From assembly GCA_015063895.1 (NCBI GenBank), contig SVTG01000001.1:13260-77259 (forward strand): DNA of 64,000 nucleotides, in the 5' to 3' direction. The first letter of the stretch is position 1. Each line of letters begins with the position of its first letter. The stretch is from Oscillospiraceae bacterium. GTDB lineage: Bacteria > Bacillota > Clostridia > Oscillospirales > CAG-272. Positions 6,301 to 54,893 of this stretch are shown here, piece by piece. Under the pieces are notes generated by a model. The model searched no databases. It saw nothing but the letters and a program-made list of their open reading frames with translations, and had not been told where the DNA came from. A program made the translations under genes and the position numbers.

Positions 6301-6393
6301 CCAAGCCCAGAAGGGCGTGCCGCGATACTCGGCCGTTGGGTTGGCGAAGAGTGTGGGAGATAGCGTTTTTTTGCGGTTTTTCGGGTAAAGCAC
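3328..6393 (-). CDS. large putative glycoside hydrolase (family not assigned)
   Basis: 1021-aa uninterrupted ORF with a GTG start 6 nt after AGGAGG. The N-terminal ...GTPFWAWNGQLEKNELLRQISIFKKMGFGGFHMH... resembles uncharacterised glycosyl-hydrolase/jelly-roll proteins. Confidence 0.55.
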   Translation of the reverse strand: MLYPKNRKKTLSPTLFANPTAEYRGTPFWAWNGQLEKNELLRQISIFKKMGFGGFHMHVRYGMATPYLSEEFLDLTRACVEEAKRLDMLAWLYDEDRYPSGFAGGLVTGDPARRAKRLYLSTAPKPQKTESLPDELLARFDVCLDGEGNLTSYRMLARGEVAQGRLLYAYLRTLPPSPRFNDTAYVDTLSKEAIDLFIESTHEKFKATVGEDFGGAVPAIFTDEPQYSIVTNYTLDDSLGPVDMLLPFTTDLDESFKSATGKGLIAAIPELIWQLKDGISSPLRYQYFDHLTERFVNAFADNIGAWCKKNGIALTGHVMAEPTLGGQTHAVGEAMRSYRGFEIPGIDILCNKYEFTTAKQAQSAKHQYGREAMLSELYGVTGWDNDFRGHKMQGDWQAALGVTVRVPHLSWYSMKGGAKRDYPASFHYHSPWYGEYHYVEDHYARLNTALTRGKPVVHIGVIHPIESNWLNDGPEDKTGAIREDLGNAFKSVTSWLLFGTLDFDYICESTLPALCPVGGAPLQVGEMAYDAVVIPPVDTLRRTTLDRLQAFTKAGGRLIVMGDIPKHVDGVRAHDAAEALADAVRISPTRAALLAALAPYRTVSIKTDKGKQSGDMIYALRNDGEGRWLFVTKAVMPYNKDISNADKRLITVKGRWQATLYDTLTGEVRPYPVTLTGDATQIEKIFYPYDSLLLYLTPATDEETASPTTAKQALTPLCLPSSAAFTLHEPNALLLDMAEYAVDGGAWHPVEEMMRANDAIREMLGLRVQNGDDCQPWCLSEETPTHTVSLRFTVESEVDLVNVALASEIPDTAQIQLDGCEVANIPCGYYVDIAIKRVALPPITRGTHTLVLTLPYGERSTLEWCYLLGGFGVRVTGREKRLCALPERLGFSTITAQGLPFYSGKLSYHLPVSLPEDAQLQICVPQYRAATVLASLDGGEPVQLSLSPYLATLPAGAGTHTLTLDLYINRTNGFGPVHMTDRRREWLGAGTWRTKNDAFAYEYTLSEQGLLTAPQCRLVKE

Positions 6394-39786: not shown

Positions 39787-40458
39787 TTATTCAACGCTTT
39801 CAATGATCCTCAAGGCATTTTCAAGCCCGATCTCGGAGGGGCAGAATAATTCAAACACGTAGGTATCGGTGACCCATATTGCGGTGAGTAAGCCGTTTTT
39901 ATCGTTCATGTAAACGAGCGTTTGATTGACGTATACGGTGAAAAAAGAGGAGTTTTCAGTGTCTAAGCCAATTTTATTGTTAGAAGTTTGTTGGTAAAAT
40001 CTTATTTGATCATCATCATTTTCCCAAAGGTAGTAGTTGGAAATAGTATTTTTGTTGTTTTCTTTTTCTATGTAGTTTTCAGGTAACCAGGATGGCTTGT
40101 AATATGTGGAGATCGTATTTGATGTGTAATTGCTTTGAGGATTGCTTATCTCAAAATTGCTGTGCGTGCCAAACGTTTTGATGATAAATTCATAAACAGC
40201 CTCGCGTACGCCGCTGATGCTGAGTGAAAGTGCAAATAATAACATCAACGCCACCACTACCGTGATAAAACGGCGCTTGGCAGTTTTGACAAAGCGCCAC
40301 GTAAAACGGCGCTGCGCACGCGCCAGTCTTTCAATCTTTTTCGTGAGCTGTGGGGAGGTGATCGGCGGGCAGGAGGGCAGGGCCTCAAAAACAGCGATCT
40401 CCGCCATAGCTACACTTTGCAGCGCTTGCTTAACGTAAGAATTGGTGATGCGTTTCAT
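39787..40458 (-). CDS. anti-sigma factor-like membrane protein with DUF4367-type extracytoplasmic domain
   Basis: 223 aa with a single TM segment (ITVVVALMLLFALSLSI). ...YKPSWLPENY... is typical of DUF4367. Overlaps the sigma gene by 4 nt. Confidence 0.65.
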   Translation of the reverse strand: MKRITNSYVKQALQSVAMAEIAVFEALPSCPPITSPQLTKKIERLARAQRRFTWRFVKTAKRRFITVVVALMLLFALSLSISGVREAVYEFIIKTFGTHSNFEISNPQSNYTSNTISTYYKPSWLPENYIEKENNKNTISNYYLWENDDDQIRFYQQTSNNKIGLDTENSSFFTVYVNQTLVYMNDKNGLLTAIWVTDTYVFELFCPSEIGLENALRIIESVE

Positions 40459-40970
40459 AATTTGAGCACCTCATCAAATTTTTTTCGTATCAGCTGCTGA
40501 CCGCGTCTTAACTGGGTACGCACCGTATGGACTGAACGCCCAAGTGCTGTGGCGATCTCTTGTGGGCTAAGCTCTAAAACAATAAAGAAGGTCAACGGAT
40601 CTACGTATTGTGAGGGCAAGGTATTTATGAAAGCGATAAGCTGGTCGTAAATATTTTCAGCAGCAACCTCTTGCGCTATGTTTTGGCCGTCATCGCGGAG
40701 GTCGTCAGTCGGTGCTATGTGTGCGTGTCGGTTGTTTTCGCGCAGAATTTCAACAGCGGCGCATTTGATCACCTTTGTTACGTAAATTCTAACTTCGTTA
40801 CTATATGGATCTTGTAACTTTTTTATGTTGCGCGCAACAGCCAGCATCGCGTCTTGTACCGCGTCCTCTTGGTCCTGCGGCGAGGTTAGATATTTGCAAG
40901 CGATTTTTGACATCAAGGGTAGATACGCTTCGTATATCTTGATAAAAGTATCGCTTTCTTCTGCTGACAT
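40455..40970 (-). CDS. ECF-type RNA polymerase sigma-70 family factor
   Basis: 171 aa. Region 2 (...DQEDAVQDAMLAV...) and region 4 HTH (...SPQEIATALGRSVHTVRTQLRRG...). Confidence 0.8.
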   Translation of the reverse strand: MSAEESDTFIKIYEAYLPLMSKIACKYLTSPQDQEDAVQDAMLAVARNIKKLQDPYSNEVRIYVTKVIKCAAVEILRENNRHAHIAPTDDLRDDGQNIAQEVAAENIYDQLIAFINTLPSQYVDPLTFFIVLELSPQEIATALGRSVHTVRTQLRRGQQLIRKKFDEVLKL

Positions 40971-41678: not shown

Positions 41679-41767
41679 AAAGAAGCAGAGTAAACAATGT
41701 AATGTCGCTTTGCTTCTTTGATAAAAATTTGACGGGTTAAAGTCTTGTTTTGTTAAAGGAGAGTTTA

Positions 41768-44700
41768 ATGATGAAAAAAACAGTAAAACGTTTCTCATTT
41801 AAAAGTGTTACTTTTTTCTTGGCGATCATTATTGCAGTGCTTTCCTTACCTCTTAGCGTATTTGCAGCAGGGATAGCGTCCTCGGCGGAGCCGACCGACG
41901 CCGAGCAGGAGCTGCCCGAGGCTTTTGAGATTGTAGAGCTAAGAGAAGAAAGCGTCAAGCATTACCGTTTGCTGGACGGCACATACGTGGCCGCCCAATA
42001 TGATGTTGCCGTGCACGAAAAGGACGAGAACGGTGTATGGCAGGATATTGATAATTCGCTGAGCGAAACGCTGCTCGGTTATCAGACCAATAACGAGCGC
42101 GTTAAATTTGCCAAAAAATCAACCGCCTCAAAGCTTATCAAGATCAAAGACGGCGAGTATCAGATCTCATACAGTCTGATCGATGCCGAAAAGAGCGAGG
42201 CTGTGGTGCAAACGACCTCGCCCGAGGAAGAAGCTTCGGTTACCAAATTTGAGGAGCTTTCGGAGCTTTCTCGCTTGGTATCCACGGTTACCTATCAAAA
42301 CGTATTTGAAAACACCGATATAGAATACGTGCTCAAGGGCAACGCGATCAAGGAAAATATTATCGTCAAAGCGGCGGGTACCGACTCGTATAGCTATAGC
42401 TTTGAGATCAAGCTGAAAAACTTAGAGGCCGCCCTGCAGGGCGATGGCTCCATCGCTTTTACCGATAGCGAAACGGGAAAAAACGTTTATAGCGTGCCGG
42501 CCCCCTATATGTACGATGCAAACGGTATCGTATCGCACGCAGTATCTTATACGCTTACCCAAAAGGGCAACAAATATATCTTAACCGTCACCGCCGATGC
42601 CGCTTGGCTGAACGCCGAGGGGCGCGCCCTGCCCGTTGTGATCGACCCCACGCTGACCTACGGGCCACACAATAACGGCTTGGAGTCTACTTATATTGAT
42701 AGCGCAAATCCCAACACCAACTATGTCAATACCGATCCCTTACAGGTTGGCAAAACGGCAAGCGGCGTTTCCTATGCGCTGATGCGCGTGCCGCAGCTGC
42801 CGACCCTGCCCGCCAACGCCGTGCTGAGTGAAGCTAAGCTGTATTTTTCCGCTTTGTATACCTCGCAAACGGGTGCCAACGGAAAATTAACGGTTGCCAA
42901 AATAAGCACGTCGCAATTGGGTAGCTCTTGGCAGGCCAATACCGTTACTTATGCCGACTGTGCAAGCGGCGCTGTGTATTTGGATAGCATGAGCTTGGAT
43001 TTTTGGGAATTTACGTCAAATACCGAGCACAACGGCGGCACTTCTCAAGCGATAGCCTGCTATATGGATCTGACCGTGCTTGCAGGGCAGTGGTATGACG
43101 GTACGACACCCAATCACGGTGTATGGCTCTCCTTGGCAAATGCAAGCGTCGGTGACACGGTGGCCATTACCAATACCAATACCTCTACAAAACCGTATTT
43201 TACGCTTACCTATCGCGATACCAAGGGTGTGGAGGATTATTATACCTACGCTTCTTTTCCCACCGACGGAGCAGGCACGGGTTACGTGAATGCCTTTGGC
43301 GGCAATCTGGTGTTTGCTCATAACAGTATTTCCACCACCGACGAGCTTTTACCCTATACCTTGGGGCTTGTTTATAACAGCGCACTGGCAGGGAAATATT
43401 ATACTGCAGAAAATGCCAAGACCGCATTGACCTCCGCAACCACGGGCAAGGGCTTCAAGCTTTCCTTTGACGAAACAGTGATAAAGGAAGTGATCGCTGG
43501 CACTCCGTATATAATATTGGCTGACGCAGACGGCACCGAGCATTATTTTTACAATGGCTCAAATGCCGCTACGATGGACGATGAGATATATATGGAATAT
43601 TTTGATAATTATTATCGTATACGAAATGATTACGTGAAGCACACCTTGCAAACCGACATTGGTTTGAAGGTCACGTTCCGAGAAGTCATAGAGGAGCTGG
43701 TTCTCAGCGCAAATGAGGACTTGTCCGAGGACTTTACGCTTTATATTCTGCGCGGCTATGAGGTAGAGGACGACACCGGCAATTTCAAGCAATTTTCGCT
43801 TGACGGCAGATTAACGAGCATCACCGATGCCAACGGCAACGCGCGTTATTTCAATTGGCACGATGAGGGCTATTTACAAAGCATTTCACTAACGCCCTAC
43901 GGTGTGTCTGCCATCACGCAAATGACCTTCACCTACACGCCTGCGGGCAAGCTTGCCACGGCTACCAACGTGCAGACGGGGCTTACTGCGACCTTTCTTT
44001 ACGGCACCGAGGGTGCAGAGGCAGGCTGTCTTGTAGGCATCACCTACACGTATTCCTCAACCGATACCTATCAGGTGCAATTTTCTTATGATACAAGCGG
44101 CCGCCTGCAGCGCGTGACCGATACCAAAACCGCGATCAGTACCGTATATACGTATGACGAAGCAGACCGTGTGGTGCAGGTGCAGTATTACGGTGAAAAC
44201 GGTGCCGTTGGCCAAACGGCAGGGATGATATACGAGGGCAATACCACCTCGTACCGCACGGCGGGCATTGATAACGTGTACGGCAACGACGATGATATTA
44301 TTACCGTATACGTGCTTGACCGTATGGGGCGCGTTGTAACCGAATATACCAAGTGCGGCAATAAGGTCTATGGGGCTACGCAGTATTCTTACGTTTCCGA
44401 GGATAACGACAGAGCCTACCATAACTATAAAACCGTCACGGCAACGGGAAGTGCCACGACCAATTATCTCGTCAATCCCGGCTTTGACGTTAGGGGTAGC
44501 AACGCGCTGCCCGCGAATTGGAGCTATAGCGGCATCACGGTTTCCGGCACGCAAATAAAGCCTGTTTCTGGCGAGAACGCCGTTGCCGTATTGGGCGCCT
44601 ATCAGGGTAACGCTGCCACCTTGTCGCAAGAGTATACCTGTGAGGCAGGCACCTATACCTTTGCGGTATCTTACCTGCGTAAATATTTGCGGGCGGGGGA

Positions 44701-47700
44701 TATTGCGAAAATTGCCGTATACCGTCAATCGGATAACGAAGTATTGGTGTCAAGTGATAATATTACCAACAGCATTGCCGAATATCCCGACGAATGGGAG
44801 CGCGCAAGCGTGACGTTTACGCTTGCCGAGAGTACCGCCATCTACGTGCAGATAGAGCTGAGTTCAAGTGCTGCACAGTCAAATGACCCGGCACAGCTTT
44901 ACGTGGATTCCGCGATGCTGGAAAAGGCCGACGGTGCAAGCTCCTATAGCAGTATTGGTGACGGCTCCTTTGAAAGCTCCTCGCTTTTATGGGATGTGCC
45001 CTCGTATAGCGAAATCAGCGAAAGCAGCAACGCCTTTGAGGGTGCAAGCGCGCTGAAGATCACTTCACCGTGGCAAGGTACTGCGGAGCCTGCACACACC
45101 ACCCTGACGTATGACGTGGGGGTAGCCACAAGCAGCAGCAAGCCGACGTCCTTCGTGCTTTCGGGCTGGGCCAAGGCAAATGCCACCCCGAAGGGCAAGC
45201 TTGAATTGCGCGCGGTGCTGCATTATGCAGGCACCGATCACACAAGCACCTACACGGCCGAATTCAACTATCAGACCACCGATTGGCAGTTTGCCTTCTG
45301 CGTGCTGTTCAGCGAGCAGATCGAAAACTCAAACGCAAACGAATCTGTAACGTATTACTGCGTCACAAGCATTGATATTTATTGCGATTATGCGGGCAAC
45401 CTGAACACCGCCTATTTTGATAATATCTCGCTGGTGCAAAACGCGGGCTACCTCACCGAATACACCTATAATGAAAAGGGATACGTAACAAGGTCAACCT
45501 GCTCAGATGCCACAGGTGTGGAGCTGACCTATGCATCAAACGGCGTTGACGTCACCAAGCTGACAGATATTGGTGCCAACAGCTACGATATCACCTATGA
45601 CAGCAAGCACCGCCCCACCTCGTTTGTCAACAAAAACGGTGACACCGACTATACTGTTTCTTATGAATACGATAACGTGGGACACGTGACCGCCACCTAT
45701 GTAGAGGGCAGCACGGTTTCCGCCACCACCTACGCAACCGCCCCGGGGTATTTTGGCGCGATGCTGACGCACACCGATGAAAACGGTGGCACAACGCGTT
45801 ATTTCTACAACAGCAAGGGTGAGCTGACAGGTGTTGCAGACCCCAACGAAAACGGCATTGTCTATACCTATAACGCCTACGGCCAGCTGACGGGCGCACA
45901 GGTGGCAACCTACAACGCGGCAAGTGATACGCTGTCGGTAGTGCCTACGGGCAGTGACGTCGGCTACAGCTATAACGGCAAGGGTCAGCTGCTGGAGATC
46001 GAGGCAAACGGCACCGAATACGCCTTTACCTACGATGCCTTCGGCAACGTGCTGAGCATCACCGCCAACGGTCAAATGCTTTCCGCCAATCAGTATGCCC
46101 CCAACAACGGTGTGCTGCTGCAACCACCTATGGCAACGGCTTTTTCGTGTATTATCAATATGATGAGCTTGGCCGCACTGTGGGCGTGTGCTACAATGGC
46201 ACGCAAACAGCTACCTATAAATATGCCTATAACGCAAACGGCAGATCGCTACGCATACCGATACGGCAAACAACGTCAATACGAGTATACCTATGATGCT
46301 GATGGGCGTCTGCTGCTCTCGGCGATGCGCGACAACACGGGCGATACGCTGTATTTGCGAAAGCTCAGCTATGACGGTAAGGGGCGTGTCACGGCCATTG
46401 ACCGCTATTATCCCAATTCACCCGATACCGCGGCAGATACCACCACCTATACCTATACCGAGGAGGGGAATCTCGCGACCCTCACGCACAGTGGGGCAGA
46501 GCGTAGCTTTACCTATCTTTACGATGCGCTGGGGCGGTATATCGGCCACAACGCCGCCAGCACGACCAACAGCAGTGCTTGGCAGACTGTTAGTATTGAA
46601 TATGGGGGCATTAGCAATCAGGTATACGGCGCTTATATAGACGACACTAACAACACCGTAGGCGAAATGTTTTACTACGATGAGGCAGGCAATATCGTCG
46701 AGTATTATTATGTGCTCTATGACGGCAATTACTACCAATTCAATTACACCTACGATGAAAAGTCGCAGCTGGTGCGCGCCGACGTGCTGTATAGCGACGA
46801 CCCGACGCACGAAAGCTCCGCCACCTACGTCTATACCTATGATAACGCAGGCAATCGCACAGCGGTGCTGAAATATGCGTATACATGGTTTTATGAAACC
46901 CCCATGGCACCGCTTGCCACCAAGAGCTATACCTATCAGGGCAATTTGCTGGTGAGCGCTAACGGGCAGGCTGTCACGTATGACCAAATCGGCAACCCCT
47001 TGAGCTATAACGGCGCTGCGTTCACGTGGCAGGGGCGACGCTTGATGCAATATGCCAAGGGCAACCAAACCGTTTCGTATACCTACAATGCCGATGGCAT
47101 TCGCACGAGCAAGACCGTAAACGGCATCAAGCACGAATACGTGCTTGACGGCACGCAAATTTTGCGTGAACGCATTTACAGCGCCAACGGCCAATACGTG
47201 GCCGAGGAACTGCGTTATTATTACGACGGGCAGGGGCAGCCTGCGGCGCTGCGGCACGTGACCTTTAACCAAAGCGGCACCGAAACAGCCAACGATCTCT
47301 ATTATTTCAGCACCACGCTTGCGGGTGACGTTTGCCATATTTATGACGAGAACGGCACTGTGCTTGCCACCTACGTTTACGATGCCTGGGGCAACGTAAC
47401 CGAAATTCAAGAGCTTGCCGACGGCGGCACCGAGATCGCCAACCTCAACCCCTTGCGCTACCGTGGGTATTATTTTGATACCGACACGGGGTATTATTAT
47501 CTGAACTCCAGATATTACAGCGCCGAGTGGGGGAGGTTTATTAGTGCGGATGCGTACGTTTCCACGGGGCAGGGGTTAACTGGCTGCAATATGTTCATAT
47601 ATTGTGGCAATAATCCCATTAATTTCTGTGATCCTAAGGGCGAATTTTTTACTGCTATTGCAGTAGGTGGAATTGCAGCATGGAAGATAGGCGTTGCAGT

Positions 47701-48160
47701 TGTAGGTTTAATTATAGCAGCTGGTGTAGCTGCTTCAATTGCAGAAAACCCTCCTGCTTATCCCACAATTGTATCGCCCAAAATTGAAGTAAAAGTTCAG
47801 AGCGAAAGCAAAGTTGAGGATGCTGTTTCATCTATACCAAATGAAACTCCTAAAACTACCATTATATATCGTTATGGTGGATCTAATCCTGGAAATTTTG
47901 TGCCAAGTCAAAAAGATGTTTTGACTAATTCAGGGCTATCTTTTTCTACTGTTCCTCCTCCACCGGGAACTAGAGCAGTTATAACAACTATAGAAGCGCT
48001 TAATGCAACTGGCATAGTTAGAGCATATCAAGATAAGCCGGGCCATGTAAGAGTTGATCCGGTTGTTGGAACTTTGGCTGATTGGCGAGCGGGTGGCAGT
48101 GAGCATATATGTACAATTGCTGTTAAAAGCGTTTCAGTGAAGTGGTATGGAGGTAAATAA
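41768..48160 (+). CDS. Sec-signal RHS/YD-repeat polymorphic toxin (WapA-like) with variable C-terminal toxin domain
   Basis: About 2,130 aa. Signal peptide MMKKTVKRFSFKSVTFFLAIIIAVLSLPLSVFA, many YD repeats (YTYDxxGR...), the RHS core ...LNPLRYRGYYFDTDTGYYYLNSRYYSAEWGRFIS..., then ...NNPINFCDPKGEF plus a ~170-aa AT-rich tail. Confidence 0.9.
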   Translation: MMKKTVKRFSFKSVTFFLAIIIAVLSLPLSVFAAGIASSAEPTDAEQELPEAFEIVELREESVKHYRLLDGTYVAAQYDVAVHEKDENGVWQDIDNSLSETLLGYQTNNERVKFAKKSTASKLIKIKDGEYQISYSLIDAEKSEAVVQTTSPEEEASVTKFEELSELSRLVSTVTYQNVFENTDIEYVLKGNAIKENIIVKAAGTDSYSYSFEIKLKNLEAALQGDGSIAFTDSETGKNVYSVPAPYMYDANGIVSHAVSYTLTQKGNKYILTVTADAAWLNAEGRALPVVIDPTLTYGPHNNGLESTYIDSANPNTNYVNTDPLQVGKTASGVSYALMRVPQLPTLPANAVLSEAKLYFSALYTSQTGANGKLTVAKISTSQLGSSWQANTVTYADCASGAVYLDSMSLDFWEFTSNTEHNGGTSQAIACYMDLTVLAGQWYDGTTPNHGVWLSLANASVGDTVAITNTNTSTKPYFTLTYRDTKGVEDYYTYASFPTDGAGTGYVNAFGGNLVFAHNSISTTDELLPYTLGLVYNSALAGKYYTAENAKTALTSATTGKGFKLSFDETVIKEVIAGTPYIILADADGTEHYFYNGSNAATMDDEIYMEYFDNYYRIRNDYVKHTLQTDIGLKVTFREVIEELVLSANEDLSEDFTLYILRGYEVEDDTGNFKQFSLDGRLTSITDANGNARYFNWHDEGYLQSISLTPYGVSAITQMTFTYTPAGKLATATNVQTGLTATFLYGTEGAEAGCLVGITYTYSSTDTYQVQFSYDTSGRLQRVTDTKTAISTVYTYDEADRVVQVQYYGENGAVGQTAGMIYEGNTTSYRTAGIDNVYGNDDDIITVYVLDRMGRVVTEYTKCGNKVYGATQYSYVSEDNDRAYHNYKTVTATGSATTNYLVNPGFDVRGSNALPANWSYSGITVSGTQIKPVSGENAVAVLGAYQGNAATLSQEYTCEAGTYTFAVSYLRKYLRAGDIAKIAVYRQSDNEVLVSSDNITNSIAEYPDEWERASVTFTLAESTAIYVQIELSSSAAQSNDPAQLYVDSAMLEKADGASSYSSIGDGSFESSSLLWDVPSYSEISESSNAFEGASALKITSPWQGTAEPAHTTLTYDVGVATSSSKPTSFVLSGWAKANATPKGKLELRAVLHYAGTDHTSTYTAEFNYQTTDWQFAFCVLFSEQIENSNANESVTYYCVTSIDIYCDYAGNLNTAYFDNISLVQNAGYLTEYTYNEKGYVTRSTCSDATGVELTYASNGVDVTKLTDIGANSYDITYDSKHRPTSFVNKNGDTDYTVSYEYDNVGHVTATYVEGSTVSATTYATAPGYFGAMLTHTDENGGTTRYFYNSKGELTGVADPNENGIVYTYNAYGQLTGAQVATYNAASDTLSVVPTGSDVGYSYNGKGQLLEIEANGTEYAFTYDAFGNVLSITANGQMLSANQYAPNNGVLLQPPMATAFSCIINMMSLAALWACATMARKQLPINMPITQTADRYAYRYGKQRQYEYTYDADGRLLLSAMRDNTGDTLYLRKLSYDGKGRVTAIDRYYPNSPDTAADTTTYTYTEEGNLATLTHSGAERSFTYLYDALGRYIGHNAASTTNSSAWQTVSIEYGGISNQVYGAYIDDTNNTVGEMFYYDEAGNIVEYYYVLYDGNYYQFNYTYDEKSQLVRADVLYSDDPTHESSATYVYTYDNAGNRTAVLKYAYTWFYETPMAPLATKSYTYQGNLLVSANGQAVTYDQIGNPLSYNGAAFTWQGRRLMQYAKGNQTVSYTYNADGIRTSKTVNGIKHEYVLDGTQILRERIYSANGQYVAEELRYYYDGQGQPAALRHVTFNQSGTETANDLYYFSTTLAGDVCHIYDENGTVLATYVYDAWGNVTEIQELADGGTEIANLNPLRYRGYYFDTDTGYYYLNSRYYSAEWGRFISADAYVSTGQGLTGCNMFIYCGNNPINFCDPKGEFFTAIAVGGIAAWKIGVAVVGLIIAAGVAASIAENPPAYPTIVSPKIEVKVQSESKVEDAVSSIPNETPKTTIIYRYGGSNPGNFVPSQKDVLTNSGLSFSTVPPPPGTRAVITTIEALNATGIVRAYQDKPGHVRVDPVVGTLADWRAGGSEHICTIAVKSVSVKWYGGK
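46720..47538 (+). repeat. ~0.8-kb rhs core segment repeated at 48741-49557
   Basis: Encoded proteins are nearly identical from ...APLATKSYTYQGNLLVSANGQAVTYDQIGNPL... to ...YYLNSRYYSAEWGR. The first ~55 aa are more diverged. Confidence 0.9.
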
Positions 48161-48637
48161 ATGAACGATGTGAATGAAATATATAGAATGTTAAATTGCC
48201 AAAGTAAATTAGAGGAGCAATTAAGGGGAATCAAACTGGCAAGAAACTTAGAAGATTTGTCTTTTTTAATTCTTCCTTTTGCAAACGGAGAAAGCAAGAG
48301 ACTTTGGGAAAATTGTGCAAAAGCATTATACGAAATATCAGATGAAAAATTAGAGCAATACTTACCTTCTTTGTTAGAGTGGTTGCAAGATTTAAATTGG
48401 CCCGGGGCATTGATAATATTAGACAGACTTAAAAAATTTTCAGGTAAAAAATTAAAAAAGCCCTTTATGGATCGGTATACTTTTGCTTGTAATTTGAATG
48501 ACGAAGAAGGGTTGATGTGGTTAGATTATTTGTCAGAATTGCTTGAAAATGAGCAATTGAAGCAAGAATTGCCTATACATGTCAAAGAAAAGTTGCAAGA
48601 ACATTTTAAAAATTGGGGTTTTTGGTATAGTGAGTAA
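48161..48637 (+). CDS. cognate immunity protein candidate (DUF5071-like)
   Basis: The ATG directly abuts the rhs stop (TAAATG). 158 aa. ...LLEWLQDLNWPGALIILDRL... resembles the DUF5071 family. Confidence 0.65.
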   Translation: MNDVNEIYRMLNCQSKLEEQLRGIKLARNLEDLSFLILPFANGESKRLWENCAKALYEISDEKLEQYLPSLLEWLQDLNWPGALIILDRLKKFSGKKLKKPFMDRYTFACNLNDEEGLMWLDYLSELLENEQLKQELPIHVKEKLQEHFKNWGFWYSE

Positions 48638-48643
48638 CATAGT

Positions 48644-48728
48644 AACACAGGGGACGGTTCATTGTGTTAAGTTGACAGCGTAACAAATTGTGGTAAAATG
48701 TAACCACAGGGCAATTTCCTGTGGTTAC
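48644..48728. repeat. cassette-boundary paired-hairpin element, copy 1 (variant second hairpin)
   Basis: AACACAGGGGACGGTTCATTGTGTT, then a spacer containing TTGACA, then GTAACCACAGG-GCAATTT-CCTGTGGTTAC. Confidence 0.9.
48672..48699 (+). promoter_or_regulatory. candidate promoter inside element copy 1
   Basis: TTGACA (48672-48677), 16-nt spacer ending in TGG, TAAAAT (48694-48699). Confidence 0.45.
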
Positions 48729-50223
48729 ATCTGCCACCGCCGACGGCAGCTACGATCAAGTCAATTACACCTACGATGAAAAGTCGCAGCTGGTGCGTGT
48801 TGATATCCTTTATAACGGTGATCCGACGCATGAGCGCTCCTTGACCTACGTCTATACCTATGATAACGCAGGCAATCGCACGGCGGTGATGAAGTACGCT
48901 TATACCTCGCCCGACCAAACGCCAATGGCACCGCTTGCCACCAAGAGCTATACCTATCAGGGCAATTTGCTGGTGAGCGCCAACGGGCAGGCCGTCACGT
49001 ATGACCAAATCGGTAACCCCTTAAGCTATAACGGTGCCACGTTTACGTGGCAGGGGCGGCGCTTGATGCAATATGCCAAGGGCAACCAAACCGTTTCGTA
49101 TACCTACAATGCCGATGGCATTCGCACAAGCAAGACCGTAAACGGCATCAAGCACGAATACGTGCTTGACGGCACGCAGATTTTGCGTGAGCGTATTTAC
49201 AGCGCAAACGGACAATACGTGGCACAGGAGCTGCGCTATTATTACGACGGGCAGGGGCAGCCTGCGGCGCTGCGGCACGTGACCTTTAACCAAAGCGGCA
49301 CCGAAACGGCCAACGATCTCTATTATTTCAGCACCACGCTTGCGGGTGACGTCTGCCATATCTACGATGAAAACGGCACCGTGCTTGCCACCTACGTTTA
49401 CGATGCCTGGGGCAACGTAACCGAAATTCAAGAGCTTGCCGACGGCGGCACCGAAATTGCCAACCTCAACCCCTTGCGCTACCGTGGGTATTATTTTGAT
49501 ACCGACACGAGGTATTATTATCTGAATTCCAGATATTACAGCGCCGAGTGGGGGAGGATGATCAGTCCCGATAATGCCAATGTTGTAACAGCTACTCCCA
49601 CGGCACTCACTGATAAAAATTTGTATGCTTACTGTGATAATAACCCTGTTATGAGGGTTGATGCATGTGGGGAATTTTGGCATATAGCTGTTGGTGCAAT
49701 TGCGGGAGCAATAATAGGTGGAGTAACTAAAGTAGTATCTAATGCTATAGAAGGTAAATCGCTAAATGATGGTTTGGCAATGGCTATGATAACAGGTGCT
49801 GCTAGTGGAGCTCTCGCGGCAACAGGTGTTGGAATTGTTGGACAGGTAGTTGGAAGTGCAGCAATTGCAATGGCAGGAAATGCTACACAACAAGTTATAA
49901 ATATTGCCCAAGGTGAAAGTGAAACTTTTAGTGTTATAGAAGTTTTGGCAGATGGAGCTATTGGAGCAGCGGGGGGATTATTAGGGGGACCAGGAGCTAG
50001 TCAAGGAAATAATAAAACCGCGATGACTTTAGGAAAGCAATTAACAAAAAGAATTTTTACTAAGGGGGAAGTTTCTAAAGGATTATCTTATTATGCCAAA
50101 AATATGATGAATGGTGCGGGTAAATCAATTTTCAAAGGATTGAGAAATGCATTGGTTTTCTCTGGTACGACAACGCTTACTTTAAATTCAAATAGAGCAG
50201 TATACAATAGGTGGTTCAGATGA
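48721..50223 (+). CDS. orphan Rhs C-terminal fragment: RHS core plus alternative glycine-zipper-rich toxin tail (no own N-terminus or RBS)
   Basis: The ORF opens inside a hairpin with GTG and no SD. Residues ~15-280 duplicate the main rhs core. After ...NNPVMRVDACGEF comes a different tail rich in GxxxG/A (IAGAIIGG..., GAASGALAATGVGIVGQVVGSAAIAMAG...). Confidence 0.75.
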   Translation: MVTSATADGSYDQVNYTYDEKSQLVRVDILYNGDPTHERSLTYVYTYDNAGNRTAVMKYAYTSPDQTPMAPLATKSYTYQGNLLVSANGQAVTYDQIGNPLSYNGATFTWQGRRLMQYAKGNQTVSYTYNADGIRTSKTVNGIKHEYVLDGTQILRERIYSANGQYVAQELRYYYDGQGQPAALRHVTFNQSGTETANDLYYFSTTLAGDVCHIYDENGTVLATYVYDAWGNVTEIQELADGGTEIANLNPLRYRGYYFDTDTRYYYLNSRYYSAEWGRMISPDNANVVTATPTALTDKNLYAYCDNNPVMRVDACGEFWHIAVGAIAGAIIGGVTKVVSNAIEGKSLNDGLAMAMITGAASGALAATGVGIVGQVVGSAAIAMAGNATQQVINIAQGESETFSVIEVLADGAIGAAGGLLGGPGASQGNNKTAMTLGKQLTKRIFTKGEVSKGLSYYAKNMMNGAGKSIFKGLRNALVFSGTTTLTLNSNRAVYNRWFR

Positions 50224-50648
50224 TTTTTCCGTTGAGTTTATGGATAGTTGGGTTTTTCATGTCTGTGTTGGTTAATTTTGTGAGTTATTTTGCGATCCGA
50301 GAAATTATATGGTCCATTATTTGGTGTGATAAAAAAGGGAAATACAGTGCTTTAAAACATGTAAAGAAAAAACTTTCTTTTTTTCAAAGAATTACTATGA
50401 GAAATTTAAAACAATATACCAGCATTCATGAAAAAAATTTTCTCTTTTGGTTAAAAATAAAATTGTTCTTTACAATAACAGAAATCATTTTGCTATTGTT
50501 TTATTGTATATGTATGGTTTTCCATCATCATTTTTTGTGTCAACAAGTTATGATTTTTATTATAATTCAATCTTATGTTTTATTTTTTATTTTGCGGTGT
50601 CAATTTGGTTTTCAACGCCGAACCAAATATGATAGAAGTAACAAATAA
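50220..50648 (+). CDS. polytopic membrane protein, candidate immunity for the orphan toxin
   Basis: ATGA start/stop overlap with the orphan rhs fragment. About 142 aa with 4 hydrophobic segments. Very AT-rich. Confidence 0.6.
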   Translation: MIFPLSLWIVGFFMSVLVNFVSYFAIREIIWSIIWCDKKGKYSALKHVKKKLSFFQRITMRNLKQYTSIHEKNFLFWLKIKLFFTITEIILLLFYCICMVFHHHFLCQQVMIFIIIQSYVLFFILRCQFGFQRRTKYDRSNK

Positions 50649-50723
50649 CACAGGGGACGGTTCCTTGTGTTAACGTTGACAAGAGCAAAAGCCATTATAA
50701 CACAGGGAACCGTCCCCTGTGTT
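50647..50723. repeat. cassette-boundary paired-hairpin element, copy 2
   Basis: AACACAGGGGACGGTTCCTTGTGTT-AACGTTGACAAGAGCAAAAGCCATTAT-AACACAGGGAACCGTCCCCTGTGTT. Confidence 0.95.
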
Positions 50724-50745
50724 CCAAAAAGGAGATCTCTTTTGA

Positions 50746-51345
50746 ATGATTGATTTACAAACATACCTTAAAAGCAAAATATGTGATATTATTTCAATGT
50801 GGAATGAAGATAATATCTATGCCATTTCATTTTTTGTTTATTCAAATGAGGCATATCAATACAATGGATATTCAAATGTAACCGAATTTTGTGTGAGTTA
50901 TAACACTGAGGCTGATTGTAACGGTGCGGACCGGTTCTCTGAGGAGCGTTGGAACTATGCTTTTTGGCGACAAAATGAATTTCCTGTTATTGAAGCTAAC
51001 AATGAAAACGAGGGCATCAAAATTCTTTTTGAATGGTACAAGCAAAACAGCATTGTAAATATTGGTTATGAAGATTCAAAAGCTTGTTATGATGATAAAA
51101 TGCGATATATCGGAAAAGGCCCTGTCGGTTATTATGAGCTGCTCTCAGAAATAGCAATCGTTGCAAAAGAACTTCAGGATAGCGGTTTTATTAAGAATAA
51201 ATTTGGTAGGGCGATTCCTATTATTCTCCACGACTTAGAGTATGCGTGGTACGTTATGGAAGCAACTAAAAAAGCAAATCCTAACGGAGAAGCTGATGTG
51301 TTTTTTGCTGCGATGAAAAAACTTGGTTTTAACACAGGGGATTAA
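50746..51345 (+). CDS. orphan immunity-type protein (possibly DUF4303-like), copy 1
   Basis: 199 aa. RBS AAAGGAGA. Protein identical to 52392-52991. Cytoplasmic, no signal peptide. Confidence 0.6.
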   Translation: MIDLQTYLKSKICDIISMWNEDNIYAISFFVYSNEAYQYNGYSNVTEFCVSYNTEADCNGADRFSEERWNYAFWRQNEFPVIEANNENEGIKILFEWYKQNSIVNIGYEDSKACYDDKMRYIGKGPVGYYELLSEIAIVAKELQDSGFIKNKFGRAIPIILHDLEYAWYVMEATKKANPNGEADVFFAAMKKLGFNTGD

Positions 51346-51396
51346 TAACACAGGGGTGGATCTAATTCGGTTATTTGGAGATTGGGGGTGATTTGC

Positions 51397-51792
51397 ATGA
51401 AAAAGATCATATTGCTTTTGTGTCTTGCTTCTATGCTTTCGTGTTGTTCCTGCGGTTTATTTGGTGCTCGAAAGTATGTGTGTGAAGTTGAAAACGTTGA
51501 TTCTATTCAAATTGTTAGATTGGATCAATATATCGAGGAGGAATTGCGATATGAATATACTGTTCTTTCACAAATTGTTGATTATGAGGCTTTTGTGTGT
51601 GAATTGAATGAAGTAGAGCATTCTGTAAATTGGGGTGACCCACGTCAAATGGACATTGGATATGTTGTCATTAAAATTAACTACATTAATGGTGATTTGA
51701 TTTGCTTCATCCGGATGCACAATGTTTTCATCGATCAGGAAAAAATCAATATGGTTATTTCTTTTTCGATGATGCAGCTTTTAATTTGTTGA
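51397..51792 (+). CDS. putative lipoprotein, copy 1 (frameshifted relative to copy 2)
   Basis: MKKIILLLCLASMLSCCSC signal. A T3 run at 51696-51698 replaces the T4 of copy 2 and changes the last ~35 residues. Confidence 0.5.
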   Translation: MKKIILLLCLASMLSCCSCGLFGARKYVCEVENVDSIQIVRLDQYIEEELRYEYTVLSQIVDYEAFVCELNEVEHSVNWGDPRQMDIGYVVIKINYINGDLICFIRMHNVFIDQEKINMVISFSMMQLLIC

Positions 51793-51800
51793 TCTCTAAT

Positions 51801-51874
51801 AACACAGGGACGGTTCTTTGTGTTAACGTTGACAAGGGAAAAAAGCCATAACACAGGGAACTGCCCCCTGTGTT
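51801..51874. repeat. cassette-boundary paired-hairpin element, copy 3
   Basis: AACACAGGGACGGTTCTTTGTGTT-AACGTTGACAAGGGAAAAAAGCCAT-AACACAGGGAACTGCCCCCTGTGTT. Confidence 0.9.
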
Positions 51875-51904
51875 CTGCAATACAATAAAATCAGGTGATT
51901 TATA

Positions 51905-52282
51905 ATGGATTTATTTTATCAAATATTAGCATTAACACTTACTTTGTTTTTAATGTTTTTTTTAATTCGTGGCGTAACAAGAATGTATATAGATTCTGTG
52001 TTAACAAAACGACAAAGAAAAACTCGTGCCAAGAAACAAACTTTTTTTGAGTGGTTTTTTTATAGGCGCTTTTTAGGTGTTTTGCCAAAATTTTCATTGG
52101 TATGGTATTATATTAATTTTGCTGTGTATTTTGTTATGGTTATTGCTGTCATTATATTAAAAATAGTCGGTATACCTAATATTGGTAGAGATATTGTGTG
52201 GGTGTATTTTGCTATCAATGCTGTTTTTCTCATTTCTTTTAGGTTTACTTGTGTTAAAGTTGACAAGGGCCAAAAGCCATGA
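51905..52282 (+). CDS. small polytopic membrane protein (immunity-type candidate)
   Basis: 125 aa with 3-4 TM segments. The 3' end is encoded by a partial boundary element (52248-52292). Confidence 0.5.
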   Translation: MDLFYQILALTLTLFLMFFLIRGVTRMYIDSVLTKRQRKTRAKKQTFFEWFFYRRFLGVLPKFSLVWYYINFAVYFVMVIAVIILKIVGIPNIGRDIVWVYFAINAVFLISFRFTCVKVDKGQKP

Positions 52283-52292
52283 TAAAATGCAT

Positions 52293-52369
52293 AACACAGG
52301 GGACGGTTCCTTGTGTTAACGTTGACAAGAGCAAAAGCCATTATAACGCAGGGAACCGTCCCCTGTGTT
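52293..52369. repeat. cassette-boundary paired-hairpin element, copy 4
   Basis: Identical to copy 2 except for one base (AACGCAGGG). Confidence 0.95.
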
Positions 52370-52391
52370 CCAAAAAGGAGATCTCTTTTGA

Positions 52392-52991
52392 ATGATTGAT
52401 TTACAAACATACCTTAAAAGCAAAATATGTGATATTATTTCAATGTGGAATGAAGATAATATCTATGCCATTTCATTTTTTGTTTATTCAAATGAGGCAT
52501 ATCAATACAATGGATATTCAAATGTAACCGAATTTTGTGTGAGTTATAACACTGAGGCTGATTGTAACGGTGCGGACCGGTTCTCTGAGGAGCGTTGGAA
52601 CTATGCTTTTTGGCGACAAAATGAATTTCCTGTTATTGAAGCTAACAATGAAAACGAGGGCATCAAAATTCTTTTTGAATGGTACAAGCAAAACAGCATT
52701 GTAAATATTGGTTATGAAGATTCAAAAGCTTGTTATGATGATAAAATGCGATATATCGGAAAAGGCCCTGTCGGTTATTATGAGCTGCTCTCAGAAATAG
52801 CAATCGTTGCAAAAGAACTTCAGGATAGCGGTTTTATTAAGAATAAATTTGGTAGGGCGATTCCTATTATTCTCCACGACTTAGAGTATGCGTGGTACGT
52901 TATGGAAGCAACTAAAAAAGCAAATCCTAACGGAGAAGCTGATGTGTTTTTTGCTGCGATGAAAAAACTTGGTTTTAACACAGGGGATTAA
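52392..52991 (+). CDS. orphan immunity-type protein, copy 2
   Basis: Protein identical to 50746-51345. Confidence 0.6.
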   Translation: MIDLQTYLKSKICDIISMWNEDNIYAISFFVYSNEAYQYNGYSNVTEFCVSYNTEADCNGADRFSEERWNYAFWRQNEFPVIEANNENEGIKILFEWYKQNSIVNIGYEDSKACYDDKMRYIGKGPVGYYELLSEIAIVAKELQDSGFIKNKFGRAIPIILHDLEYAWYVMEATKKANPNGEADVFFAAMKKLGFNTGD

Positions 52992-53042
52992 TAACACAGG
53001 GGTGGATCTAATTCGGTTATTTGGAGATTGGGGGTGATTTGC

Positions 53043-53474
53043 ATGAAAAAGATCATATTGCTTTTGTGTCTTGCTTCTATGCTTTCGTGTTGTTCCTGCG
53101 GTTTATTTGGTGCTCGAAAGTATGTGTGTGAAGTTGAAAACGTTGATTCTATTCAAATTGTTAGATTGGATCAATATATCGAGGAGGAATTGAGATATGA
53201 ATATACTGTTCTTTCACAAATTGTTGATTGTGAGGCTTTTGTGTCTGAATTGAATGAAGTAGAGCATTCTGTAAATTGGGGTGACCCACGTCAAATGGAC
53301 ATTGGATATGTTGTCATTAAAATTAACTACATTAATGGTGATTTTGATTTGCTTCATCCGGATGCACAATGTTTTCATCGATCGGGAAAAAATCAATATG
53401 GTTATTTCTTTTTCGATGATGCAGCTTTTAATTTGCTGATCTCTAATAACACAGGGGACGGTTCCTTGTGTTAA
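53043..53474 (+). CDS. putative lipoprotein, copy 2 (longer frame)
   Basis: 143 aa. Reads through hairpin A of the next element (...ISNNTGDGSLC*). Confidence 0.5.
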   Translation: MKKIILLLCLASMLSCCSCGLFGARKYVCEVENVDSIQIVRLDQYIEEELRYEYTVLSQIVDCEAFVSELNEVEHSVNWGDPRQMDIGYVVIKINYINGDFDLLHPDAQCFHRSGKNQYGYFFFDDAAFNLLISNNTGDGSLC

Positions 53475-53520
53475 ACTGACAAGGGCATAACACATAACAC
53501 AGGGAACCGTCCCTTGTGTT
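53448..53520. repeat. cassette-boundary paired-hairpin element, copy 5
   Basis: AACACAGGGGACGGTTCCTTGTGTT-AAACTGACAAGGGCATAACACAT-AACACAGGGAACCGTCCCTTGTGTT. Confidence 0.9.
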
Positions 53521-53536
53521 TAAGGAGAAAATGAAT

Positions 53537-53929
53537 ATGATCACAAGAAAAAATTTTCTTTTGTTGACAATAGCATTAATATTAACAGTCTGTATTTTAG
53601 TAGGTGCTATTATATTTTTGCGATACCGAAATCCTAAAGTAAACAGCTTTGAGTTTAGTGACTATCAGCATTATGTGGATGAATTTCCTTTGGATAAAAA
53701 TGTTGGCGCTATCATTGATGCGAAAGACGCTACTAAGAAAGCTGAAACCGTTTGGATAGAAATATACGGAAAAGCGGTGACAAAACAAAAACCATATGAA
53801 GTGTTTTACGATGCAGCGAATAAGGTTTGGCTTGTAAAAGGGACTGTAGGATTTCAACGTAAAGGTGGCGTAGCCCATATATTGATGAACAATACCGGTG
53901 ATGTATTGGCTGTATGGCATACGAAATAA
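53537..53929 (+). CDS. NTF2-fold immunity protein (Imm-NTF2-like), membrane-anchored
   Basis: The ATG at 53537 has the best spacing from AAGGAG (53531 is also possible). ...AETVWIEIYGKAVTKQKPYEVFYDAANKVWLVKGT...GGVAHILMNNTGDVLAVWHTK pattern. Confidence 0.65.
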   Translation: MITRKNFLLLTIALILTVCILVGAIIFLRYRNPKVNSFEFSDYQHYVDEFPLDKNVGAIIDAKDATKKAETVWIEIYGKAVTKQKPYEVFYDAANKVWLVKGTVGFQRKGGVAHILMNNTGDVLAVWHTK

Positions 53930-53932
53930 TGT

Positions 53933-54006
53933 AACACAGGGGACGGTTCCTTGTGTTAAAGCTTACAAGGGCATAACACATAACACAGGGAATCGTCCCC
54001 GGTGTT
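53933..54006. repeat. cassette-boundary paired-hairpin element, copy 6
   Basis: AACACAGGGGACGGTTCCTTGTGTT-AAAGCTTACAAGGGCATAACACAT-AACACAGGGAATCGTCCCCGGTGTT. Confidence 0.9.
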
Positions 54007-54049
54007 CCTAAATCACCCAAGACCCCATGGTTGCCATAAGGAGAACAAC

Positions 54050-54433
54050 ATGAAGAAAAAACGTTTTATATTGGCTATATTCGCACTAATTATTTTTGGA
54101 GGAATATTTAGTGTGGTGTTTCAATATCATCGGTTTAAAATAAGTGTTGGGAATTTCAATCTAATAGAATATCAATGGGAGATAGAGAATTTTTCAACTG
54201 AACAAAACATTGGAGAGATTATAGATAAAAACGATGCCGTTGAAAAGGCTGCGTCAATATGGCTTGAGCAATATGGCATTTGTGTTCAAAAAAAGAATAT
54301 TAAAGTGGATTTTGATTCTAGTGAGGATTGTTGGCATGTTTATAATTCAGTACCAAAAAATCAGTTAGGAGGAGTATACCACGCTATTATTCAAACCAAT
54401 GGAAACCTTGTTGCTGTTTGGGCTGAAGATTGA
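54050..54433 (+). CDS. NTF2-fold immunity protein (Imm-NTF2-like), second diverged paralogue
   Basis: ATG after AAGGAGA. 127 aa. ...AASIWLEQYGICVQKKNIKVDFDSSEDCWHVYNS...GGVYHAIIQTNGNLVAVWAED. Confidence 0.65.
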   Translation: MKKKRFILAIFALIIFGGIFSVVFQYHRFKISVGNFNLIEYQWEIENFSTEQNIGEIIDKNDAVEKAASIWLEQYGICVQKKNIKVDFDSSEDCWHVYNSVPKNQLGGVYHAIIQTNGNLVAVWAED

Positions 54434-54449
54434 ATGTTAAAGTTGTCAT

Positions 54450-54539
54450 AACACAGGGGACAGTCCCTTGTGTTAAAGCTTACAAGGTCAAAACGCCATG
54501 ACAAAATGCAACCACAGGAGTAAAATCCTGTGGTTGCAT
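54450..54539. repeat. cassette-boundary element, terminal copy 7 (variant second hairpin)
   Basis: AACACAGGGGACAGTCCCTTGTGTT, then a spacer, then ATGCAACCACAGGA-GTAAAA-TCCTGTGGTTGCAT (14-bp perfect stem). Confidence 0.9.
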
Positions 54540-54680
54540 AAATCACCTATGATAACGTAAGAGGGCACGGCGCTTGCCGCGCCTTTTTTAATTGGGGATT
54601 TGAAACGCAGATAAAAAACCAAATTATCCTTTGTACCTGCAAGGGAACAAATCTCCCCCATACAGCTTTCATATAGACAT

Positions 54681-54738: not shown

Positions 54739-54893
54739 GGGTTTTGCGTGTTTTTCCGTGTTTTTCGGGTTTTGCGTGTCTTTCCGTGTTTTTCGGGTTT
54801 TGCGTGTTTTTTCGTGTTTTTTGGGTTTTGTGTGTCTTTCCGTGTTTTTCGGGTTTTGCGTGTTTTTTCGTGTTTTTTGGGTTTTGTGTGTCT
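54739..54893. repeat. 5.5 tandem copies of a 28-bp T-tract repeat
   Basis: Units start at 54739, 54767, 54795, 54823, 54851 and 54879. Consensus is GGGTTTTGCGTGTNTTTCCGTGTTTTTC. Units 3+4 equal units 5+6, giving a 56-bp higher order. Confidence 0.9.

Follow-up and report, generated by a model that had tools for sequence, protein, structure and literature searches.

A 64-kb stretch of contig SVTG01000001.1 from an Oscillospiraceae bacterium (hereafter the window, to whose first letter coordinates refer) carries an array of rhs toxin and immunity genes whose junctions are marked by a 77-bp element, an inverted doublet of a 25-nt hairpin that resembles repetitive extragenic palindromes (REPs). 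The genes of the array are co-directional on the + strand and form a low-GC tail (31-37% GC against ~53% for the chromosome). The array begins with the main rhs gene (41750-48160, +; 2136 aa) and the gene of a DUF5071 protein (48161-48637, +), the presumed cognate immunity gene. Then follow an orphan rhs core fragment with a toxin tip, which extends to 50223, and an overlapping gene for a small membrane protein of 145 aa (50211-50648), both within 48729-50648 on the + strand. The remaining cassettes comprise the genes of a 199-aa protein and a lipoprotein, present in two copies, the gene of a 125-aa membrane protein, and two Imm-NTF2-2 immunity genes (53516-53929 and 54002-54433, +). An intrinsic-terminator-like site, GGCGCTTGCCGCGCC followed by T6 (54569-54590, +), closes the array.

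The repeated unit is a 25-nt imperfect palindrome, AACACAGGGGACGGTTCCTTGTGTT. With up to three mismatches allowed, it occurs 12 times, always within 48644-54474, where none is expected from 100 shuffles. Outside the array, neither a further unit at five mismatches nor any 12-nt half-unit was found in the window, which bears out the view of the first-pass annotation of this DNA that the motif occurs nowhere else in the 64 kb. The local density is extreme, at 12 units per 6 kb, compared with none in ~73 kb of adjoining DNA of the same organism. The units, which start (T)AACACAGGG, form seven inverted doublets (E1 to E7) at the gene junctions, all in the same orientation on the + strand; every full copy listed by the first-pass annotation was recovered. 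When consistently oriented, each unit forms a palindrome of 12 pairs, of which up to three can be G·T, so that the hairpin described earlier is real, but its stem of 9 bp with a single G-T had been drawn too small. E2-E6 consist of unit A, a spacer of 23-27 nt, and an inverted unit B. As had been suggested, A is nearly the reverse complement of B and can pair with it, forming a 26-bp stem with a predicted DNA folding energy down to -28.2 kcal/mol (z -9.1; z-scores -6 to -9 among the doublets), while the corresponding RNA folds at -41 to -48 kcal/mol (best -47.6). The + strand folds better than the - strand in every doublet of the window, and it also has a positive GC skew.

The individual copies differ in completeness. 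E1 (48644-48728) separates the stop codon of the DUF5071 immunity gene from the 5′-truncated orphan rhs; its unit A (48644-48668) is followed by a promoter-like TTGACA-16-TGgTAAAAT (48672-48699) and by a variant hairpin, AACCACAGG-N7-CCTGTGGTT (48699-48728). E2 (50647-50723) is a 77-bp doublet whose two units enclose a 27-nt spacer with the -35 box TTGACA kept and the -10 box lost, and E4 (52293-52369) duplicates it with one substitution in unit B. E5 (53448-53520) is a doublet with a 23-nt spacer. E3 (51801-51874) is decayed, with a 1-nt deletion in A, loop changes in B and a long hairpin of just -16.4 kcal/mol; E6 (53933-54006) has a 24-nt spacer and a decayed unit B. In E7 (54450-54539), a weak promoter-like spacer separates unit A from the variant hairpin ATGCAACCACAGGA-N6-TCCTGTGGTTGCAT. 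The variant second hairpin is indeed shared by the first and last copies: in the window it is confined to E1 and E7, and among 91 other loci it was not found. E3, E6 and E7 carry uncompensated changes and have much weaker folds, which argues against strong selection on each copy. The reported fragments were all found as well, namely two left half-units (AACACAGGGG) between the 199-aa and lipoprotein genes at 51331-51359, their duplicate at 52977-53005, and a right arm with spacer at 52248-52292 and at 54434-54449. The piece at 52248-52292 joins the right arm of a unit to a long spacer with an intact promoter-like TTGACA-17-TGaTAAAAT (52260-52288), whereas that at 54434-54449 is a partial spacer fragment directly preceding E7 (54434-54539 together). 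The spacer motif AGCCAT, described as conserved, does not extend to E5 and E6.

All elements occupy gene junctions, but the rule that they always lie between a stop codon and the next ribosome-binding site (RBS) does not hold strictly, as some open reading frames (ORFs) extend into them. Specifically, the lipoprotein ORF at 53028-53474 reads through unit A of E5 and ends at a TAA at the end of this hairpin, the stop codon of ORF 50211-50648 shares its last bases with the beginning of E2, the 125-aa ORF has its end within the 52248 fragment, and the 199-aa ORFs terminate within the first half-unit. Several ORF tails are thus taken from the REP unit itself, reading ...NTGDGSLC or ...NTGD before the stop (53448-53474, 51331-51345 and 52977-52991, as well as 4167-4193 of L019; loci outside the window carry L numbers). 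Since these ORFs end with REP-derived codons and stop, REP insertion has remodelled protein C-termini. On the + (coding) strand no T-run was found at any REP hairpin, and the only nearby terminator-like site is that at 54569-54590. Rfam in gathering mode gave 0 matches in the window; in evalue mode, applied to the array and six loci, it gave nothing relevant, just sub-threshold look-alikes of miRNA precursors in the window.

Next, we scanned one genome per species in 8-kb blocks for exact matches to the pattern AACACAGGGRACNGTYCCYTGTGTT, in a collection that includes fragmented metagenome-assembled genomes (MAGs). The 25-mer was found in 91 blocks from 61 species-representative genomes, and in some of them it accompanies a transposase gene. 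Of 150 ORFs next to units, 7 belong to Y1_Tnp, more than to any other Pfam family, and the largest clusters among 658 ORFs are rhs fragments (9) and REP-associated tyrosine transposases (RAYTs; 8), with no other conserved neighbour gene. The Y1 proteins of ~250 aa match the NCBIfam model NF047646 'REP-associated tyrosine transposase', with three of five proteins above its cut-off of 80 bits (89.8, 84.2 and 81.4 bits); they also match Pfam PF01797, and their sole PDB match is 4ER8 (TnpArep of E. coli). In at least seven blocks (L067, L051, L041, L069, L042, L016 and L011) the RAYT gene lies between inverted units. In the first five of these, the upstream unit abuts the -35 box of the gene and the inverted unit follows 0-5 nt past the stop; the last bases of the upstream unit form the -35 box of a TTGACA-17-TAAAAT promoter, which is followed by an RBS and the RAYT gene. 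RAYT fragments adjoin units in seven further loci. One full copy plus fragments was seen in each of the incomplete genomes CAMHER01 (L051 and L025) and DJYJ01 (L041 and L056). A tblastn search of plasmids with the RAYT returned only distant 'transposase' homologues.

The RAYT proteins are just 44-72% identical although the 25-mer is almost invariant. A more divergent Eggerthellaceae RAYT, 30% identical to the others (L061, 3340-4420), has on both sides a hairpin that resembles, but differs from, the unit (GTGACAGGGGGACGGTCCAG; GTGACAGGGGGACGGTCC), which indicates that protein and hairpin co-vary. The RAYT cassette is inverted in L041 (5043-5894) relative to the same syntenic flanks in L051 (7000-7851) and L067 (6358-7208). 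Between these species the cassette has 99.2-99.3% identity, compared with 89-95% for the flanks. These findings suggest inversion of the cassette between its REPs and recent exchange between species.

The structures of shorter elements connect the transposase gene with the doublets. L065, L054 and L077, from three species, have in common a 137-bp doublet that keeps only the ends of the RAYT gene: unit A, the promoter, the RBS, ATGCCAAGACAGGCAAG (MPRQA...), the last codons ...ATTGTGAGGAAATTCAATTAA, and unit B, with the first 6 and last 7 RAYT codons retained. The spacer in the window, TTGACAAG...CCATGATAAAAT, resembles the promoters that precede RAYT genes (TTGACAAGATTATGGAAAAATGATAGAAT in L042, TTGACAAAAAGAGCAAAAAATGATATATT in L011). 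Both promoter boxes, with an extended -10, are kept in 52248-52292 and in E1, while E2-E6 keep the -35 box without the -10 box. Additionally, the non-Watson-Crick positions of the units are polar: G·T pairs have the G in the 5′ arm in 280 cases versus 6, and 89 units carry two G·T and no A·C pair, compared with 4 units that carry one of each. Owing to this concordant polarity, the hairpin pairs fully on one strand only, which fits recognition on one DNA strand. Y1 HUH transposases act on single-stranded DNA, and by this general property of the enzymes the pairing would suit a single-stranded DNA substrate.

The unit is widely distributed. Its hosts are MAGs of Acutalibacteraceae, Oscillospiraceae and other Clostridia, most of them from the gut of ruminants, as well as Eggerthellaceae/Coriobacteriia including the isolate Adlercreutzia sp. 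ZJ141. Allowing ≤1 mismatch per arm, the 91 blocks plus the window contain 183 units, mostly intergenic. Their orientation relative to genes is even (29 vs 25 between + genes, 17 vs 16 between - genes), and we therefore rejected an RNA-level signal with a fixed gene orientation; units also stand after stop codons or inside ORF 3′ ends as often as before genes. Unit sequences are nearly invariant (>90% identical across 61 species), and perfect 12+1+12 palindromes exist, while the flanks are not conserved and the neighbours are diverse, including valS, a ClpB-like ATPase gene, rpsI, AraC regulators and sigma factors. The first-pass annotation had proposed searching related genomes for confinement of the 25-mer to rhs/polymorphic-toxin islands, and had regarded scatter through unrelated intergenic regions as the mark of a generic REP. 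No such confinement was found: units also stand beside unrelated genes, and in related genomes they are scattered in just this way. Neighbouring units adopt the convergent inverted arrangement in 29 of 48 pairs. L027 and L074 hold 7 units per 8 kb each, rhs fragments occur in 10 of the 91 blocks, and in L042 the full RAYT gene adjoins a short rhs-related fragment. The tendency of the units to cluster in arrays of small genes is real but not rhs-exclusive. Pfam searches of the unit-rich arrays L027, L040, L047, L035 and L054 returned mostly no domains. The rhs arrays of other species with homologues of the 199-aa gene (73-81% identical) have no units, so these arrays do not need the element.

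The unit pattern had 0 matches in viral contigs, so that carriage by phages is unsupported. A metagenome scan with the spacer-specific pattern TTGTGTTAANGTTGACAAGRG gave 3 chance matches without units, from a collection that evidently does not contain the source samples, and the unit sequence was absent from a full-text search of papers. A longer doublet variant, whose spacer of ~140-200 nt is itself an imperfect palindrome (GTTACCGCCCAAAGCCTTCCCC...GGGGAAGGTGGG...) without an Rfam match, is common to three genomes (L003 7124-7290 and 1190-1384, L035 2919-3082, L054 3560-3796). In the rhs immunity array of another species, an unrelated element of ~280 bp with 27-nt terminal inverted repeats, TACCCTAAATTGACAAGGGCATATACG, occupies an intergenic position (L116, 9547-9823); the likeness of 'TTGACAAGGGCATA' to these inverted repeats was judged coincidental. 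L023 has a sub-threshold Rfam match to Gut-1 RNA at 6291-6364 on the - strand (45 bits against a gathering threshold of 50, E 9e-6). A promoter for an extracytoplasmic function (ECF) sigma factor inside the unit (GGAAC...CGTC) was considered and dropped, since the two motifs are contiguous rather than spaced.

The array contains internal repeats and differs between strains. Two direct repeats of 1.23 kb run from the left edge of one doublet to the right edge of the next. Copy 1 (50645-51874, +) contains E2, the 199-aa gene, a frameshifted lipoprotein gene and E3; copy 2 (52291-53520, +) contains E4, the 199-aa gene, the lipoprotein gene and E5, and is 98.4% identical to copy 1, with 100% identity initially. 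The first-pass annotation had placed the start of this duplication exactly at the edge of an element and its end inside the next hairpin A. It begins 2 nt before hairpin A (50645/52291) and identity is lost inside the next hairpin A, much as described, with an alignable length of 1232 bp. The divergence of 1.6% suggests either a duplication of some age or the acquisition of one copy from a different strain. In copy 1 of the lipoprotein gene, a 1-nt deletion in a T-run (GGTGATTTGATTT at ~51690 against GGTGATTTTGATT at ~53337) shifts the frame, leaving an ORF of 136 aa in copy 1 versus 148 aa in copy 2; the gene of copy 1 is probably a pseudogene.

Among contigs with an identical 199-aa protein, L092 and L093 are 100% identical to the window, while L096, L097, L099 and L100 are without 1646 bp and have a single 199-aa/lipoprotein pair (copy 2) and no 125-aa cassette. 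Contigs identical to the window derive from the JGI samples 3300029705 and 3300032167. The segment gained or lost is bounded by elements. It nevertheless lies between the 1.23-kb direct repeats, and homologous recombination between them explains the difference. The idea that the element behaves as a recombination boundary is supported in that strains differ by an element-bounded segment and homology breakpoints are enriched at units, whereas a dedicated recombination site is not required. Specifically, of 144 homology end-points between loci of different genomes, 29 lie ≤10 nt from a unit; positions drawn at random would give 3.3, and intergenic ones drawn at random 14.6. This statistic is inflated because a conserved 25-mer extends BLAST alignments to its own edge. 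A second polymorphism is found in L096 (an ENA contig, ERZ27248446), where the main rhs core continues directly into the toxin tip of the orphan. Here a deletion of 2021 bp between the 816-bp core repeats (46721-47536 and 48742-49557, 91.8% identical) has removed E1, the DUF5071 immunity gene and the tip of the main toxin, and represents a natural polymorphism of toxin switching by recombination.

We interpret the 77-bp elements, with a probability of about 80%, as miniatures of the REPIN (inverted REP doublet) or miniature inverted-repeat transposable element (MITE) type, in which inverted 25-nt REP hairpins enclose the remnant of a RAYT promoter. The full-length parent has the form REP, TTGACA-17-TAAAAT, RBS, RAYT gene, stop and inverted REP, as seen in many gut and rumen Clostridia and in Coriobacteriia, and a doublet would arise by loss of the interior of the RAYT gene. 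Doublets may then have been mobilised as single-stranded hairpins by a RAYT acting in trans, located elsewhere in the genome or formerly present. In this organism they have accumulated at the junctions of the low-GC, co-directional rhs array and were copied there in part by segmental duplication. Once in place, they probably serve as dispersed homology for duplication and deletion of cassettes; copies with both promoter boxes (48672-48699 and 52260-52288) could transcribe downstream immunity genes, and a doublet within a read-through transcript would form a 26-bp RNA hairpin that may affect processing or stabilisation. The presence of several decaying copies favours selfish or neutral elements rather than essential modules.

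A number of observations weigh against this interpretation. Mobilisation in trans within the organism's own genome is assumed, as tblastn detected no RAYT in the 64-kb window. The earlier statement that the window holds none is upheld to that extent, and integrase or transposase domains are likewise missing from the array-adjacent genes, although the rest of the window was not exhaustively scanned for them. No unit occurs in the ~58 kb of the window beyond the array or in ~15 kb of extra flank from the same organism. Twelve units in 6 kb and seven co-oriented doublets show more order than random insertion predicts; segmental duplication explains part of this excess. The similarity between spacer and RAYT promoters is short, and the -10 box is missing in E2-E6. 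Copy number is low: by exact matching in fragmented MAGs, no species genome has more than 6 blocks, and long contigs carry roughly one every 100-290 kb. Finally, a 25-mer that is near-identical across two phyla, together with a RAYT cassette that is 99% alike in three species, is unlike the vertical inheritance of proteobacterial REPIN-RAYT systems.

Comparison with known systems places the element closest to REP/REPIN-RAYT. Classical REPINs number tens to hundreds per genome, and proteobacterial REPIN-RAYT systems are vertically inherited. As in these systems, the present units are short imperfect extragenic palindromes, their inverted doublets fold with the spacer as one hairpin, and the same palindromes stand inverted around a Y1 HUH gene in related genomes, whose protein matches the NCBIfam RAYT model. 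REPINs have been defined as inverted REP doublets with a spacer that form hairpins in single-stranded DNA or mRNA and are associated with RAYTs (Bertels & Rainey 2011, PMC3116915), and Group 1 RAYTs with only a few repeats beside them are already on record for Clostridia (Bertels et al. 2017, PMC5581495). The likeness to REPIN doublets noted in the first-pass annotation is hence well founded, whereas its designation of the element as an undescribed kind gives way to a REPIN-type doublet of the RAYT family. There are also differences. Here copy number is low, at a few blocks per genome; the 5′ GTAG motif of proteobacterial REPs, which may be specific to proteobacterial groups, is not found in the units; the protein has a C-terminal extension of ~110 aa; and the spacer carries the transposase promoter. 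Unlike in REP-RAYT systems, the 25-mer scarcely varies over Clostridia and Coriobacteriia, against protein identities of only 44-72%; three species share one RAYT cassette at 99% identity, which suggests horizontal spread; and the units cluster strongly in small-gene arrays.

The element also resembles MITEs derived from IS200/IS605 (palindrome-associated transposable elements), being apparently an internal-deletion derivative that keeps both hairpin ends of a Y1 element; the 137-bp form retains the first and last codons of the gene, and the 77-bp form of the window has a promoter remnant only. In contrast to those MITEs, the parent carries a RAYT-type gene alone, no more than one full-length copy of it was seen in any of the incomplete genomes, and its end hairpins repeat each other in inverted orientation, as REPs do, where those MITEs have a different hairpin at each end. 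The rAID-1 systems of Bacteroidales have a XerD-like recombinase at the 5′ end of an array of immunity genes that is low in GC, runs in one direction and has repetitive sequence in its intergenic gaps (bioRxiv 10.1101/471110). The array in the window shares the low GC, the co-directional orphan immunity genes and a repeated sequence in each intergenic gap; it differs in that no recombinase was found among the array-adjacent genes, the repeats are of REP/RAYT type and occur outside arrays too, and the array hangs off an rhs gene. With integron attC sites the units share imperfect palindromes at cassette boundaries, single-strand folding and a preferred strand. The analogy drawn earlier with integrons nevertheless fails, as there is no adjacent IntI, no attI and no Pc, the associated enzyme family is HUH and not tyrosine recombinase, and attC sites conserve structure with variable sequence, unlike units that are >90% identical in 61 species. 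No terminator-like site on the + strand coincides with any unit, which sets the element apart from intrinsic terminators.

Several other explanations were considered. In a dedicated capture system of the integron or rAID-1 kind, doublets would be the sites at which immunity and orphan-toxin cassettes are inserted, excised and reshuffled, either by a RAYT that mobilises single-stranded segments with REPs at their ends or by another dedicated enzyme. We consider this improbable, since neither a recombinase nor a RAYT was found in or beside the array and ordinary homologous recombination between the 1.23-kb repeats suffices for the 1646-bp polymorphism, even if an element of one orientation stands at every junction and that polymorphism is bounded by elements. 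The rAID-1 systems prove that low-GC immunity arrays with repetitive intergenic sequence exist (bioRxiv 10.1101/471110), but other species' rhs arrays with 199-aa homologues are unit-free, and L003 has two consecutive orphan rhs modules with no unit between them. Some breakpoints are suggestive of capture: homology of an ankyrin-repeat gene ends ≤2 nt from a unit (at the downstream end in L040 and the upstream end in L077), and synteny between L019 and L039 is lost precisely at one unit and restored 162 nt past a second unit in L019. The excess of end-points at units over intergenic expectation points the same way, with the inflation described above. Similarly, each of the seven units of L027 lies 15-60 nt upstream of a small co-directional gene, and rhs fragments accompany units in the blocks already mentioned, including L042 with its RAYT; units nevertheless stand beside housekeeping genes too, and several copies are decaying. 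A direct role of the doublets in cassette capture is possible. The far-reaching version, in which REP-bounded segments capture, duplicate and exchange orphan immunity and toxin cassettes between species and donate a promoter, as an HUH-based analogue of integrons and rAID-1 in Gram-positive rhs arrays, is unlikely.

An expression module selected by the host, with a doublet that insulates each immunity gene, a hairpin that ends or processes the transcript (for instance through RNase III or 3′-end protection) and an internal promoter that restarts transcription, is very unlikely. The promoter-like sites at 48672-48699 and 52260-52288 do score 11/12, have an extended -10 and face the downstream genes, but five of the seven doublets are without a usable -10 box. 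The RNA hairpins are very stable (-41 to -48 kcal/mol), the mRNA (+) strand folds better than the - strand, and E. coli REPs stabilise upstream mRNA; the hairpins have no U-tract, however, with a single terminator-like site past the array, and in L027 the well-pairing strand is antisense for 6 of 7 units. Unit B ends shortly upstream of each RBS in the window, while elsewhere both gene orientations are found (29 vs 25; 17 vs 16) and copies decay without compensatory changes. Such a function may hold as a side effect and leaves the origin of the element unexplained. That the 25-bp palindrome is a double-stranded operator, bound by a dimeric transcription factor that co-regulates the adjacent genes, is the least credible proposal and can be given hardly any weight. 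Palindromic units with perfect 12+1+12 forms, their frequent position against a -35 box, and ECF sigma/anti-sigma pairs adjoining units in L055 and L062 and situated upstream of the window rhs would be compatible with it. G·T wobbles on one strand only argue instead for a single-stranded form, units follow stops or lie inside ORF 3′ ends as often as they precede genes, and it is the Y1 transposase, not a regulator gene, that tracks the units.

The surroundings of the array provide further context. The flanking genes encode an ECF sigma factor, a DUF4367 protein, the rhs protein, a phosphoglycerate mutase and a signal peptidase, and the presence of PolC and dipicolinate synthase among the neighbouring genes matches the expectation for a spore-forming Firmicute. 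The ECF-type sigma factor and DUF4367 genes lie divergently upstream of the rhs locus (39787-40970, - strand), and homologous pairs in two other species (L055 1188-2374; L062 2278-3458) have REP units ~100 bp upstream of the operon. The 199-aa protein (50746-51345 and 52392-52991) is without a Pfam domain, yet has 1151 homologues. In rhs arrays represented by L114 (6920-8588) and L115, such a homologue stands directly 3′ of an AHH-nuclease ORF, and because homologues in another species follow the nuclease in this way, the 199-aa protein is probably an AHH-toxin immunity protein. Just past the array, a 28-bp tandem repeat, GGGTTTTGCGTGTTTTTCCGTGTTTTTC, is present in 5.5 copies (54739-54893); its copy number varies by strain, and a 140-aa ORF that spans it is probably spurious. 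GTGTT-rich stutters resembling this repeat also trail units in L002 and L018.

REP-RAYT systems that clearly form doublets are best documented in Proteobacteria, and these data together extend them to Clostridia of the rumen and gut and to Coriobacteriia, with two departures from the classical picture: a hairpin that is almost invariant across phyla, and signs of horizontal spread. If REP-bounded segments were indeed exchanged between species, the conservation of the 25-mer across two phyla would reflect a shared exchange currency. A RAYT that moves REP-bounded cassettes would constitute a new route of immunity-gene acquisition, one that the present evidence does not require. For the biology of polymorphic toxins, the finding means that mobile hairpin doublets can pepper an rhs immunity array, mark the gain and loss of its cassettes between strains, and may donate promoters to its genes.

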